Part shown: one piece after another, positions 3,341 to 57,384 of the stretch
Position numbering within the stretch: the stretch's first letter is position 1
Layout: every line of letters starts with the position of its first letter
Assembly: GCA_964016885.1 (NCBI GenBank)
Contig: OZ024743.1
Span: forward strand, 80,600,001 to 80,664,000
DNA length: 64,000 bases
Direction: 5' to 3'
Origin: Eledone cirrhosa
Lineage: Eukaryota
Translations under genes and position numbers: made by a program
The notes under the pieces: generated by a model
Databases searched by the model: none
What the model saw: only the letters and a program-made list of their open reading frames with translations
What the model was told of the DNA's origin: nothing

Positions 3341-3418
3341 ACACGCTGATGAACCGAGGTTATTCCATTTCTGTCAACAACTTACTGGCGAAACAGATCT
3401 CTTTGGATTTGTACGTGT
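3341..3418 (+). ncRNA. Type I hammerhead ribozyme motif (closed stem III)
   Basis: Stem I acacg/cgtgt; CTGATGA 3346-3352; GAAA 3390-3393; stem III cagatc/gatttg; GTA triplet 3411-3413; stem II long and degenerate. Confidence 0.75.
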
Positions 3419-4108
3419 GTTATATAGTTATAGAGGTATTTATTTACGCTTTAATTTATATTTTTAATTATCGTGTCTATATTCTGCCTTTCATAGGTTA
3501 TAGATTCCATACACTGGTGGTTTTTCCCTGTTGTATTGATGGCGCACTGTATCTCTCTCTAGTGTGTCACCTTTTCAACATATATATATATATATATATA
3601 TATATATATATATATATATATATATATATATATATATATATATATATATGAAAATATAGAAATCATTGTGAGCAAGAAGCCAACAGTATTTCATAATATA
3701 TATATATTATGAATTATTAATACATATAATAGAATTATGTATAAAACGATGTAGGAATAAAACCGTGTCTCTTATTCAAATCCTAAGGAATAGAAATCAT
3801 AAAGTGCTTTACGTCTATTTACAAAAAGTCGGTGGATTATATGATCAACCAACTTTCATCAATTGAATGATATATATATATGGCGCATGTCTTTCAGACA
3901 TGACAACCTTAATTTAATTTTGGAGATATATATATATATATATATATGTATATATATGGGGGGGGGGTGTAATATTGTCATCATCAACAGAGAACAGAAC
4001 TAGTCCTGTAAGAGTATAATTCATCTTTCCATAAACATACATGATGATTCAATAAGTGTTAGTAGGTTTAAAATTAAACCGTAGCCATAGATTGAATAAA
4101 TCTAGCAG

Positions 4109-4243
4109 TACTCCTATCTATATTTAGTTAAATATAATACTCCTAACTATATTTAGTTAAATATAATAAGCCTTCACCTACATTTAGTTAAATATAATAT
4201 ACTCCTAACTATATTTAGTTAAATAGGCCTTCATCTATATTTT
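4109..4243. repeat. ~29-31 bp AT-rich minisatellite (4-5 units)
   Basis: tactcctaactatatttagttaaatataa repeated. Confidence 0.85.
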
Positions 4244-4335
4244 CTGTCGAGATTCTACACAAGTCTAATTTGCCATTCACAGCACACTTTCCTCTACAAC
4301 TCGCTCTAATTCCTTAATTCATTTGGACACGCGTT

Positions 4336-5300
4336 CACACACACTCACACATGCACACATACACACATACACACACACACATACACACACACATACACAC
4401 ACATACACACACACATACACACATACACATACACACACATACACACACATACACATACACACACACATACCTACACACACACATACACAAACACACATAC
4501 ACAAACACACATACACACACAATCACACCCATACACACACACATACACTCACACATACACTCACATACACACATACACTCACACACATAATACACACACG
4601 CAAACACACACACATACACTCACACACATACACACACGCGAGCACCCACACATACACACACATACACATACACACACGCACACGCACACACACATACACA
4701 CACACATACAATACACACACTCACACATACACACACACACACACACACACACCACGCATATTTCTTTTTCCCTCTTTCATTACCTCCCACCTTCTCTTTC
4801 TCTGTCTTCCTTCCTACCTCATACTATCCCCTCCCTCTCTCTTTCTTTCCCTTCTATTTCAATTATTTGGTTTTCTCACTCCACTGTCTCCACCACCACT
4901 ACCACCACCACCAACACCACCACTACCACCGCCACCAACACCACCACTAACACCCTCCACCACTACTACCACCATCATCCGGCCCCCAACACCGCCATCA
5001 CCACCACTAACACCCAACCACCACCACCACCCTCTGCCCCCCCAACACCGCCACCAACACCACCACCACCTCCCGACACCACCACCACTAACACCCTCCA
5101 CCACCACAACCATCACGCCCCCTAACATCGCCACCACCACTTCCTCACTATTACACAACATCTCTCTCTCTTTCTCTTTCTCTTCTTCTTCTTCTTCTTC
5201 TTCTTCTGTCTTCTTCCTCCTGTACTCCTATTCTCTAGTCTCTCTTTCTCTCTCTCTCTCTCTCCTCTTCTCCTCTTCTCTACTCTCTCTCTCTCTCTAC
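4336..5300. repeat. (CA)n-like, (CCA)n-like and (CT)n low-complexity block
   Basis: Direct reading. Confidence 0.9.
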
Positions 5301-5793
5301 CTCACATCCCCGGATGTAATATATGACAATGAAACTATCTTGGCAGATTGGTAAGGCAGCCATTGTCGTAGCTTACTTGTCTAATCATACAATTAAGAGT
5401 CTCCAGTCGCAACTGAAGCACTTAGGGGCTGAGGAATTAAAGTGTCGGATCCTCTCTATTTCCTTTCGCTTCACAGAAGAACGGCGATAACGCCCACCCC
5501 ATTAGAATAGTTTTTCCAGCCGCCTTGCAAGATTCCCTTTTTTTTCCTCTCAAAACAAATGTTGTCCCAGAAAAAATAAGCGACTGCTGTGTAATTCTTT
5601 GAACAATGAAGTTTGATATTTAAAAAAATGGCAGTTTTTAAGGAATTGAAAGAAAAAAGAAAAATAATAATTATTATTATAATAATTAAAATCCGAAACA
5701 AAAGTGTGCAGATGTTCATATATTGAATGGTGGATATGTGTATATATATATATATATATATATATATATATATATATATATATATATATATAT

Positions 5794-53661: not shown

Positions 53662-54152
53662 TATATATGTATATGTATATATATATATATATATATATAT
53701 ATATATATATATATATATATACACACACACACATATATATATATATATGCATATATATTTATATGTATATATATATATACATATATATATATATATATAT
53801 ATATAGTGAGAGAGAGAGAGAGAGCGATATAGATATATATGTATTTATATATGTATGTATATATATATCTGTATATGTGTGTGTGTGTGTGTGAGTGTGT
53901 GTGTGTGTGTGTGTGTGTGTGTGTGTGTGTGTGTGAGTGTGTGTGTGTGTGTGTGTGTGTGTGTGTGTGTGTGTGTGTGTGTGTGTGTGTGTGTGTGTGT
54001 GTGTGTGTGTGTGTGTGAATAGATGCCGTGTATGTATATGTACACATGTATGAGTGTATGTCAACATGAATGGACCTGTTATTTTTATCTAAAGACATTT
54101 TTTTCCAATTCCAACCCACCCGTCCCCTCAATCTATCTTATTTCTCATTCTT

Positions 54153-54188
54153 TCTTCTGATGAAGGACTAGCGTGCGAAACGTTAAGA
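54153..54188 (+). ncRNA. Minimal type I hammerhead motif
   Basis: tctt-CTGATGA-a-ggac-tagc-gtgc-GAAA-cg-TT-aaga; one mismatch in stem II. Confidence 0.7.
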
Positions 54189-54959
54189 TCCTTTTCCTGC
54201 TATATCAAGCGTTAACCTAATATATCCCTCCCATATACAATACCGATTGTTTTGTTATTTCAGTTTACCTTTTACATACACACACACACACACACACACA
54301 CACACACACACACACACACACACATATATATATATATATATATATATATATATATATATATATATATATATGACAGTAATTGCGTTGTGATTAAACATGT
54401 AAAAAGCGCATTCCATTCCTGATTTCTTTAAAATATCATTAATTACAGCTATCATTGCTATACACACACATACATGTATATATATAAACAGAAAAGCATA
54501 AAACTATATGCACCCAAATATATCCAACATATATACAAACATAATTATATAGATATATACACGCAACTATATATACATATGTTTGTGTGTAAATATATTT
54601 CCACTCTCTCACTGTCTATATATATATATATATATATATATATGTGTGTGTATGTGTATGTATATATGTGTGTGTGTGTGTGTATATATATATATATATA
54701 TATATATATATATAAAGTATATCGTATATATTTGAGTGTATATATGTGTGTGTATATATATGTGTGTGTGTATATATGTGTGTGTGTATATATATGTGTG
54801 TGTATATATATGTGTGTGTGTGTATGTGTGTATATGTACGTGTGTGTGGTAACGATCATTAAAATCTGTTTTCGTGCTTCTATATGTAACAATTATTTTT
54901 TATTAATTTTGAATTAAATTTAGAAAATATCTTTTCATTGAGCAGGAAACGCCCTCTGT

Positions 54960-56830
54960 CACACTCTCACACACATACACACTCTCACACACATACACAC
55001 TCTCACACACTCTCACACACATACACACTCTCACACACTCTCACACACATACACACTCTCACACACTCTCACACACATACACACTCTCACACACTCTCAC
55101 ACACATACACACTCTCACACACTCTCACACACATACACACTCTCACACACATACACACTCTCACACACTCTCACACTCTCACACACATACACACTCTCAC
55201 ACACATACATACTCTCACACACATACACACTGTCACACTCTCACACACATACACACTCTCACACACCCTCACACACATACACACTCTCACACACTCTCAC
55301 ACACATACACACTCTCACACACTCTCACACACATACACACTCTCACACACACACTCTCACACACATACACACTCTCACACACTCTCACACACATACACAC
55401 TCTCACACACATACACACTCTCACACACATACACACTCTCACACACTCTCACACACATACACATACACACTCTCACACACATACACACTCTCACACACAT
55501 ACACACTCTCACACACATACACACTCTCACACACTCTTACACACATACACACTCTCACACACTCTCACACACATACACACTCTCACACACCCTCACACAC
55601 ATACACACTCTCACACACTCTCACACACATACACACTCTCACACACTCTCACACACATACACACTCTCACACACTCTCACACACATACACACTCTCACAC
55701 ACATACACACTCTCACACACATACACACTCTCACATACATACACACTCTCACACACATACACACTCTCACACACATACACACTCTCACACACTCTCACAC
55801 ACATACACACTCTTACAGATACACACTCTCACACACATACATACTCTCACACACATACACACTCACACACACATACATACTCTCACACACATACACACTC
55901 TCACACACATACACACTCACACACATACACACTCTCTCACACACTCTCACACACATACACACTCTCTCACACATACACACTCTCACACACATACACACTC
56001 ACACACATATACACACTCTCACACAGTCTCACACACATACATACTCTTCACACACGCAAACACTCTCACACACACTCACACACTCTCACACACATACACA
56101 CTTTCACACACATACACACACACACACTCTCACACACATACACACTCTCACACACATACACACTCTCATACACATACACACACATACACACACATACACA
56201 TACACACTCTCACACACTCTCACACACTCTCACACATATACACACATACACACTCTCACACACATACATACTCTCACATACACACACTCTCATACACGTA
56301 CACACACATACACATACACACTCTCACACACTCCCACACACTCTCACACACATACACACTCTCACACACATACACCCCCTCCTTCTCCTTCTCTTTCATA
56401 CCCCCCCCCTGTCCCCTCACTCTCTCCCTCTCGCTCTCTCTCCCACTCTCTCTCTCCTACTCTCTCTCCCTCGCTCTCCCTCTCTTTCCCCTCATTCTTT
56501 CTCTCTCTCCCCCTCCGTCTTCCTCCGTCTTTCTCTCTCTCTCTCCCCTTCCGTCTTTCTCTCTCTCTCCCCTCTCTCTCTCTCTCTCTCTCTCTCTATC
56601 TCTCCCTCTCTCTCTCCCTCTATCCCTCTCTCTCTATATCCCCCTATCTTCCCCCTCTCTCTCTGCATCTGTCTACATGTGTCTATGTATGTGTGTGTCT
56701 ATGTATGTGTCTATGTGTGTGTCTATGAATGTGTGTCTATGTATGTGTGTGTCTATGTATGTGTGTGTCTATGTATGTGTGTCTATGTATGTGTGTGTCT
56801 ATGTATGTATATATGCCTATGTATGTGTCT
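54960..56830. repeat. (CACACTCT/CACACATA)n degenerate repeat, then (CT)n and (GTCTATGTATGT)n-like tracts
   Basis: Direct reading; source of the 596-aa HT-rich ORF. Confidence 0.9.
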
Positions 56831-57027
56831 ACATGTATGTATTTTATAGGAATACACATAAATATCTACATTATTACTCATGTATATACAGTATAATAAT
56901 ATGTAAATATATAGTTATTTATAAACAGACATATATGTTTAATATATTTTAAGTATATATATATATATATATATATATATATATATATATATATATATAT
57001 ATATATATATATATATATATATATATA

Positions 57028-57384
57028 CAATAATATTGAATAAATGGAAACTATATTTATAAAACCATATTTATTCTATTATATATATTTCAAGGGTACC
57101 AAAAACTTTGGTACGCTTTCATCAGATGAAATACAAAGTGTGTTTTATAAATTTTGACATAGCCAAGGGAACATACCTTATCAGTTGAAGTATTCCTTGG
57201 ATAGTGACTATCCATGGAATACTTCAACTGATAAGGTATGTTCCCTTGGCTATGTCAAAATTTATAAAACACACTTTGTATTTCATCTGATGAAAGCGTA
57301 CCAAAGTTTTTGGTACCCTTGAAATATATATAATAGAATAAATATGGTTTTATAAATATAGTTTCCATTTATTCAATATTATTG
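57028..57384. mobile_element. Near-perfect 357-bp palindrome (178-bp arms, 1-nt centre at 57206) with a hammerhead in each arm; insert continues to ~57477
   Basis: Only one arm mismatch seen; plus HHR 57279-57340: tatttcat-CTGATGA-aagcgtacca..tggtaccctt-GAAA-tatata-TA-atagaata; mirror copy 57072-57133; (TA)n flanks. Confidence 0.9.

Follow-up and report, generated by a model that had tools for sequence, protein, structure and literature searches.

The hammerhead ribozyme motifs in a 64-kb stretch of the Eledone cirrhosa genome (assembly GCA_964016885.1, contig OZ024743.1, positions 80,600,001 to 80,664,000; hereafter "the window") belong, in our reading, to elements of two origins. Five sequence types are truncated 3′ ends (pseudo-long terminal repeats, pLTRs) of Penelope-like elements (PLEs) of Hydra or Neptune type. 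Five others are tandem retrozymes without genes of their own, likely inserted in trans by PLE proteins; we assign this reading a probability of roughly 0.85. The evidence comprises (i) a motif density far above that of shuffled controls, (ii) reverse transcriptase (RT) and endonuclease open reading frames (ORFs) that run into the ribozyme 3′ ends of five types, and (iii) an insertion footprint at (TA)n common to both groups. Both kinds of element are already known in other animals; their density and the shared insertion footprint are new.

Hammerhead motifs in the window

The first-pass annotation of the window had listed 14 complete type I hammerhead motifs, and we found the type I layout at all 14 coordinates. 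A strict descriptor (stem I, CUGANGA, stem II, GAAA, palindromic or closed stem III, UH) gave 8 matches in the window versus a mean of 0.025 to 0.045 and a maximum of 1 in dinucleotide-shuffled sequence (200 shuffles for each of three block sizes), and a relaxed descriptor gave 12 matches versus a mean of 0.06 and a maximum of 1 (100 shuffles). Eleven of the 14 motifs pass the relaxed descriptor (cores at 3346+, 6278−, 6643+, 7183−, 7680+, 10166+, 51949−, 52099+, 52426+, 57125− and 57287+). The other three, at 48589, 49779− and 54157, are point-damaged copies of families that are intact at other loci, the damage being a core substitution (CTGAGGA in the family), a broken stem III palindrome (CTCGAG in the family) and a weakened stem II (GGAC/GTCC in the family), respectively. 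The twelfth relaxed match, at 17749−, lies inside the ORF of a long interspersed nuclear element (LINE) and was treated as chance.

The four 3′-half motifs that had been reported in addition (5867, 7385, 51582 and 52937−) proved genuine. The motif at 52937− is nearly complete with a damaged core, and that at 5867 represents the 3′ half of a ribozyme whose stem III is closed and whose core is of the U3-A8 kind; the view of 5867 as a false half motif was dropped after this core had been recognized. Standard descriptors miss hammerheads with a U3-A8 core. Half motifs included, the window holds 12 sequence types. Taken together, these results confirm that the hammerhead motifs are real in sequence and layout. 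In an Rfam scan of the window, the 150 matches listed (out of 242) included no hammerhead family; they were microsatellites matched to microRNA models. Two more CTGATGA cores, at 2631+ and 2927− beside a (TA)33 run, fail the descriptor and are possibly decayed ribozyme ends.

Genome-wide population, covariation and predicted folds

As a genome sample, we used 59 evenly spaced 10-kb stretches (589,800 bases) of the 3.0-Gb assembly. Strict matches in this sample numbered 26, spread over 19 of the 59 stretches, versus 0 to 3 in ten shuffles. The density of C-core motifs was 44 per Mb, which extrapolates to 132,000 genome-wide (bootstrap range, 76,000 to 198,000); with the U core added, density was 61 per Mb, the shuffle background of the U core being higher (0 to 5). 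The window is about 4 times denser in motifs than the sample. With some 132,000 motifs extrapolated and 12 types in the window alone, the earlier proposal of a large and diverse hammerhead population in this genome is borne out, as is that of (TA)n as its target: a (TA)5 run lies within 350 nucleotides (nt) downstream of 31 of the 36 sample motifs, versus 24% of random positions.

Among the 16 possible combinations at core positions 3 and 8, solely C-G (20 matches) and U-A (13 matches, to which a simple repeat contributed 4 and a duplicate 1) exceeded the shuffles in the sample. When the palindrome rule was dropped, 14 of 29 C-core matches were still palindromic in stem III versus 0 in 10 shuffles. 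The U3-A8 scan without the palindrome rule was not clean (25 matches, 13 of them from a simple repeat; 3 to 6 in shuffles), and the U-core count is therefore softer than the C-core count. We also observed double changes in stem I of the 52099 lineage (T-A/C-G and G-C/A-T) and a T.G/G.T swap in stem I of lineage A. Covariation across copies is thus present in stem I of both lineages and at the 3-8 core pair.

Cofolding placed the dimer fold at the predicted minimum for two of the four palindromic motifs tried, namely, that of type B and that at 10166 (types A, B, C, E and G are described below), and not for A or the damaged 54157 motif; the dimer fold is thus predicted for part of the palindromic set. 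For the G motif, a hammerhead-like fold of the monomer was predicted. The motifs may self-cleave and may be used as dimers. Other hammerhead types occur outside the window, namely, GTAC (a Neptune pLTR), a closed CAG..CTG stem III, TGATCA and CTAATTAG, and a CGATCG type, likewise found in the sample or at other loci, has a stem II region of over 100 nt.

Five types are non-coding tandem monomers

We searched the genome with 10 of the 12 types and followed types B and 52937 through copies in loci already collected. The best 15 to 30 loci per family were read; the first-look candidates (240 to 4049 per type) are not copy numbers. Judged by their sequence organization, types A, B, C, E and G are non-LTR retrozymes, i.e., closed, non-coding tandem monomers without a PLE ORF. 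Monomer sizes are 420 to 424 nt (A), 310 to 312 nt (B), 543 nt (C), 633 to 634 nt (G) and about 640 nt (E). Tandem closure was seen for four of them: A forms arrays with as many as nine units in tandem and one more inverted (locus L277), B an array of 4 units (L247), and C and G dimers (with a period of 543 for C in L227). For E, closure is deduced from the window copy together with loci L381, L383 and L392. The longest Met-initiated ORFs in the A, B, C and G monomers span 26 to 104 amino acids. A same-strand PLE ORF within 1.6 kb upstream was found in 4/59 (A), 0/4 (B), 1/27 (C), 0/25 (G) and 1/14 (E) cases, the matches being to mixed families at mixed distances, versus 9/14 for a control Neptune pLTR type. 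Copies of A are 97 to 99% alike, and the A monomer is predicted to fold far better than shuffles (z = −7.1), partly because of an internal TA-rich hairpin.

Copies of all five occur in the window. Retrozyme C occupies 3041..3581 (+; core 3346, closed stem III, predicted cut after 3413), with a short inverted arm (~3041-3125) preceding the forward arm, and ends in (TA)n. Retrozyme A is present as an inverted arm at 6029..6330 (−; core 6278, CTAG palindrome) and as about 1.5 forward units at 6330..6948 (+; core 6643, predicted cut after 6673), the 3′ end of which is the second of two fixed sites and is fused to (TA)n. Similarly, retrozyme B comprises an inverted arm at 6985..7384 (−; core 7183, CGCG) and a forward copy at 7380..7851 (+) that carries the half motif at 7385 and a full motif (core 7680). 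Retrozyme E lies at approximately 49262..49836 (−; core 49779, damaged stem III palindrome), and retrozyme G lies at 52323..52757 (+; core 52426, closed stem III) and ends in (TA)n.

All types, tandem monomers included, might instead be pLTR fragments of autonomous PLEs, with the arrays produced by later unequal crossing-over, as in satellites. Local tandem amplification of pLTRs has indeed been proposed by Li, Clavereau & Pollet 2026 (bioRxiv 10.64898/2026.07.22.740005), in whose available text 24 of 57 Xenopus families are homologous to known transposable elements, nearly all of them PLEs. Here, the units of L277 are mixed, the L018 array is heterogeneous with an alternating pattern (L278 has three identical units), and our sampling was confined to the best matches. 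On the other side, no consistent PLE ORF lies upstream of the retrozymes, and scattered copies of A, C and G terminate at fixed positions within the monomer and cross the monomer junction at many unlinked loci, which argues that a circularly closed unit was the template. We accordingly regard an origin of every type from pLTR fragments as unlikely.

Five types are 3′ ends of Penelope-like elements

The types represented by 10166, 48589/51582, 57125/57287, 5867 and 54157 derive from autonomous PLEs of Hydra or Neptune type, moved in cis, of which they are the 5′-truncated 3′ ends (pLTRs). For the 10166 type, whose window copy at 10102..10260 (+; core 10166, TGCGCA) is the 3′ end of a very young Hydra-type PLE with 33 genomic matches identical over all 153 nt, a full RT-endonuclease ORF lies upstream in L370 and ORF parts in L371, L372 and L375. 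These ORFs carry DKT, CxCX5C, CxxC and CxH motifs, which match the Hydra definition as given in the available text of Craig et al. 2021 (PMC8557442). The Hydra endonuclease set (CxCX5C linker, CxxC and CxH around E and N, no CCHH) is complete in L375. The RT N terminus of L370 has DKT, with RWI replacing RWK; neither was seen in the CAATTG, 57287 and 5867 types. The CxCX5C linker is also present in L201 (57287 type), and for the CAATTG and 5867 types homologous endonuclease parts alone were seen. As loci L370 to L379 were chosen for extending 5′, they show linkage and not its frequency.

The CAATTG type (48589, 51582) has RT and endonuclease upstream in L245/L269 and other loci. In the window, the 3′ end of such a Hydra-type PLE at 47975..48724 (+) retains a broken endonuclease ORF from ~47975, followed by a pLTR with the core-mutated hammerhead (48589, CAATTG) and (TA)32, and a shortened 3′ tip of the CAATTG Hydra pLTR lies at 51582..51645 (+). 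Most motifs had been described as lying in ORF-less inserts; this description fails for 48589 and fits most other copies, which are short and have no ORF. For the 57125/57287 type, seen in the window as a near-perfect fold-back of a Hydra-type PLE 3′ end at 57023..57480 (both strands; cores 57125− and 57287+, TATATA), a Hydra-type endonuclease lies about 1 kb upstream in two loci (L201/L378 and L379); the 1.6-kb count, from which the founding loci were left out, gave 0/39 upstream PLE ORFs. The 5867 type, with its U3-A8 core, has a Hydra-type endonuclease C terminus upstream in L357; its window copy is a fold-back 3′ tip at 5797..5990 (+) with the 3′ half of the motif on both arms (5867+ and ~5837−), and the extreme 3′ tip of the same family recurs at 7881..7916 (−).

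The 54157 type is the 3′ end of a PLE that is probably of Neptune type (54040..54273, +; minimal CG hammerhead, core 54157). A Neptune-like endonuclease lies upstream in L337 and L339, and the GIY-YIG-like endonucleases of L337, L339, L376 and L377 are 22 to 42% identical to other Neptune-type ORFs of this genome. Their likeness, in broken copies, makes this clade Neptune-like, with Nematis as the alternative. Among the types assigned, 6-nt palindromes occur in three of four Hydra-type ends and 2- to 4-nt palindromes in Neptune-type ends. U3-A8 hammerheads also stand at the 3′ ends of Neptune-type families with a CCGG palindrome, and they end one other family, an unassigned one with a CTACGTAG palindrome (together, loci L173, L174, L178, L180, L184, L142; L042, L059, L143). 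A further Neptune family, absent from the window list, has an ORF and then a ribozyme ~380 to 420 nt past the stop codon, and elsewhere leaves short palindromic ends that resemble "mini-elements."

These observations bear on the earlier proposal that all types are non-autonomous ribozyme mini-elements moved in trans. Most window copies are indeed short, ORF-free and flanked by (TA)n, and five types are closed monomers; however, five others extend on their 5′ side into an RT/endonuclease ORF of their own where copies are longer, one of them within the window, which refutes the proposal for those five, and the autonomous Neptune family just described yields the same-looking short palindromes. 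As an account of every type it is thus very improbable. The postulated link to Penelope-like RT/GIY-YIG proteins stands, since ORFs run into the ribozyme 3′ ends of five types; mobilization in trans gives way to movement in cis for these pLTR ends and is retained, as a likely process, for the five closed monomers.

For the remaining two types, those of 51949/52099 and 52937, no parent was found among 394 loci. The former is an older TATATA type, present as a head-to-head pair at 51836..52290 (both strands; cores 51949− and 52099+), and the latter is a degenerate CAATTG-type hammerhead element at 52802..53022 (−). An abundant GIY-YIG PLE, whose 3′ part lies at 47220..47983 (−), was considered as the source of the window ribozymes and rejected, its 3′ untranslated region (UTR) having no canonical hammerhead in the copies read. 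This PLE (L111, L110, L113) has 15,603 first-look candidates and bears GIY-YIG at its C terminus. At 47220-48724 it stands head-to-head with the Hydra-type element, the two different families overlapping by ~9 nt at 47975-47983; the junction may reflect a switch of template from one RNA to another or priming from both sides by different elements.

A shared insertion footprint

Retrozymes and PLE ends are built alike. Their 3′ end is fixed and joined to (TA)n, their 5′ end varies, and there is often a 5′-truncated arm in inverted orientation that likewise meets (TA)n at its 3′ end. Two fixed ends each were found in A (56 nt apart) and C (~90 nt apart), and TA-fused fixed ends in 24 loci each numbered 12+16 for A, 17+14 for C and 24 for G. 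These counts are descriptive, because the junction patterns were written after the ends had been inspected, a first automatic count having been swamped by microsatellite matches for A and C. The fixed ends lie ~110 to 320 nt downstream of the predicted cleavage site and not at it, and retrozyme inserts continue across that site over as many as ten units; the template would therefore be a circle or an uncut multimer. A TA-type run of at least 3 nt is present at 6/8 retrozyme end sites versus 5 to 7% of monomer positions (small numbers), a hint that priming may involve pairing with the nicked target, in contrast to PAc (see below).

The PLE insertion signature, i.e., a (TA)n target, 5′ truncation, an inverted adjacent copy and fixed 3′ ends, is thus borne by the retrozymes, and their mobilization in trans by PLE proteins is therefore likely. 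Such insertion could proceed as follows. A PLE endonuclease would nick (TA)n, and reverse transcription would start at one or two fixed internal sites of the RNA, downstream of the ribozyme, and would mostly halt early, leaving the 3′ end alone. The inverted arm may come from a second copy primed on the other strand or from a template switch, and the retrozyme template may be an uncut multimer or an RNA circle formed by ribozyme cleavage and ligation. Parts of A align at ≥85% in contigs from two further organisms (a single contig in one run, five in the second), namely, the ribozyme at 6610-6701 and a 33-nt segment at 6478-6510; 6733-6789 also aligns in one of the two. As a weak hint, the segment at 6478-6510, which lies between the two fixed 3′ ends of A, is a candidate recognition signal for the mobilizing protein.

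Movement of the retrozymes by LINEs, either restriction-endonuclease LINEs beside (TAA)n or L1/Tx1-like ones, is the least probable alternative: such LINEs occupy the middle of the window, and LINEs were left open as candidates in the available text of Cervera & de la Pena 2020 (PMC7229834), but window copies of the restriction-endonuclease kind terminate at (AAT)/(TAA)n and not at (TA)n, inverted 5′-truncated arms and two fixed internal ends are PLE features, and both the arms and the (TA)n-fused ends are common to the retrozymes and PLE ends here.

Strength of the two-origin reading

Several observations weigh against the reading of PLE ends alongside retrozymes mobilized by PLE proteins. 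On the PLE side, Pfam returned no relevant family for the Hydra-type ORFs, so that the Hydra assignment rests on motifs and on an Atlas lead (matches to GIY-YIG/HTH_animal clusters, several of them commonest in Cnidaria); the 57287 assignment depends on two loci and that of 5867 on one clear locus. On the retrozyme side, comparison of the monomers with 12 autonomous PLE 3′ UTRs gave no match beyond low-complexity sequence and so pointed to no partner PLE, and a rare autonomous parent with a tandem pLTR could escape sampling of the best 15 to 30 loci. Divergence within arrays was 1.3% (55 pairs, 36 from one array) versus 2.9% between loci (1869 pairs); because this likeness is modest and the L018 array heterogeneous, these data do not establish a single rolling circle. 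Published in vitro activity of such motifs is often low in the accounts available, with 1/9 Xenopus retrozyme dimers cleaved in vitro as given in the available text of Li 2026 (10.64898/2026.07.22.740005).

A bolder version would claim the densest hammerhead population on record (45 to 60 per Mb, 130,000 to 180,000 motifs, ~10 times the axolotl density) together with an active host-parasite system, in which unrelated retrozyme circles would hijack Hydra/Neptune proteins via a conserved tail signal, prime on nicked (TA)n through a short AU run and roll through their own cleavage site, amounting to direct genomic proof of mobilization in trans. We consider this version tentative, with the odds against it.

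Other repeats in the window

The window is rich in microsatellites, and LINE copies fill the region from ~14 to 45 kb. Copies at 14614-17145, 37174-39929 and 41296-44552 encode RT with a C-terminal endonuclease and stop at (AAT)/(TAA)n, and LINEs whose exo/endonuclease is N-terminal lie on the minus strand at 17600-36000 and 58900-61800; we take the window LINEs to be Dong/R4-like and L1/Tx1-like. A ~620-nt tandem repeat (spacing, 620 to 625) at 8133-9332 and ~53207-53661 (−) ends in (CATA)n, recurs in L044 and other sample loci, and contains no hammerhead by descriptor; it may represent one more element without genes, directed at another target. Finally, an open frame of 589 amino acids at L269:1-1768 consists of repeated cysteine-rich modules; it is an exon of a host gene and has no bearing on the hammerheads.

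Comparison with known systems

How retrozymes move is still open in the literature, and gene-less monomers and autonomous PLE ends stand side by side here with the same footprint. Non-LTR retrozymes were defined by Cervera & de la Pena 2020 (PMC7229834), with 126,247 motifs in axolotl and ~5000 in mussel; PLE mobilization was proposed there, PLEs being named, in the text available, solely as strong candidates. In vertebrates, a PLE origin has been supported by co-occurrence and pLTR trees (Li 2026, 10.64898/2026.07.22.740005), with pLTR homology reported in under half of retrozyme families. We found no publication on cephalopod hammerheads or retrozymes, the search covering papers and not the supplements of those cited. 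The main text of an octopus repeat annotation (PMC13282606) has 0 mentions of ribozyme, hammerhead, retrozyme or Hydra, and our data flag a large repeat class that this text leaves unmentioned. The young families of this genome offer natural RNA-protein pairs for testing mobilization in trans and the need for the ribozyme.

The five retrozymes resemble those of other animals (PMC7229834; Li 2026) in being non-coding tandem monomers with one type I hammerhead each, in occurring as monomers to multimers and in coexisting with PLEs. They differ in size, three of the 310- to 640-nt monomers being longer than the 150 to 450 bp given in PMC7229834, though within the 51 to 972 bp of Li 2026, and no pLTR homology was found in comparison with 12 UTRs from part of the PLE families of the genome. 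Their (TA)n target, inverted arms and fixed internal ends are absent from the available parts of both accounts.

In PLE pLTRs, Cervera & de la Pena 2014 (PMC4209133) described many families per genome, palindromic stem III, truncated single copies, opposite-strand pairs and the U3-A8 core, as far as the available text goes. We found the same combination, with mostly single truncated copies and pairs on opposite strands 100 to 700 bp apart. Unlike those hammerheads, several of the types found here carry palindromes of 6 nt or a stem III that is closed, and the thousands of motifs per genome in that study compare with an estimated 130,000 or more here, by a different descriptor.

The Hydra clade was defined with hammerheads and (TA)n insertion by Craig et al. 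2021 (PMC8557442). The autonomous elements here resemble the Hydra and Neptune clades, as described in its available text, in their C-terminal endonuclease, CxCX5C (Hydra) or CX2-5CxxC (Neptune) linker, DKT (seen in the 10166 type), hammerhead, (TA)n, and tandem and inverted copies. The published Hydra clade is a small, mainly cnidarian set, whereas at least four families are present here, one of them very young and some having 3′ UTRs that reach or exceed ~1 kb.

PAc (Poseidon), as described in the available text of Frangieh et al. 2024 (PMC11167929), acts in vitro on both strands of an AT-rich target, cutting and extending each, and has two internal start sites that define a "tail," all of which resembles the footprint here; that its insertion needs no ribozyme cleavage is a further likeness. 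PAc starts at a site nonhomologous to the target, in contrast to the TA-type runs at most retrozyme end sites, and end spacing is ~30 to 90 nt here versus a 30- to 40-bp tail in PAc. Finally, motif density is ~10 times that of axolotl (a 28-Gb genome per Li 2026), the descriptors being different. This genome stands out by scale, by several Hydra-type families that are young, and by retrozymes with the same footprint as PLEs.

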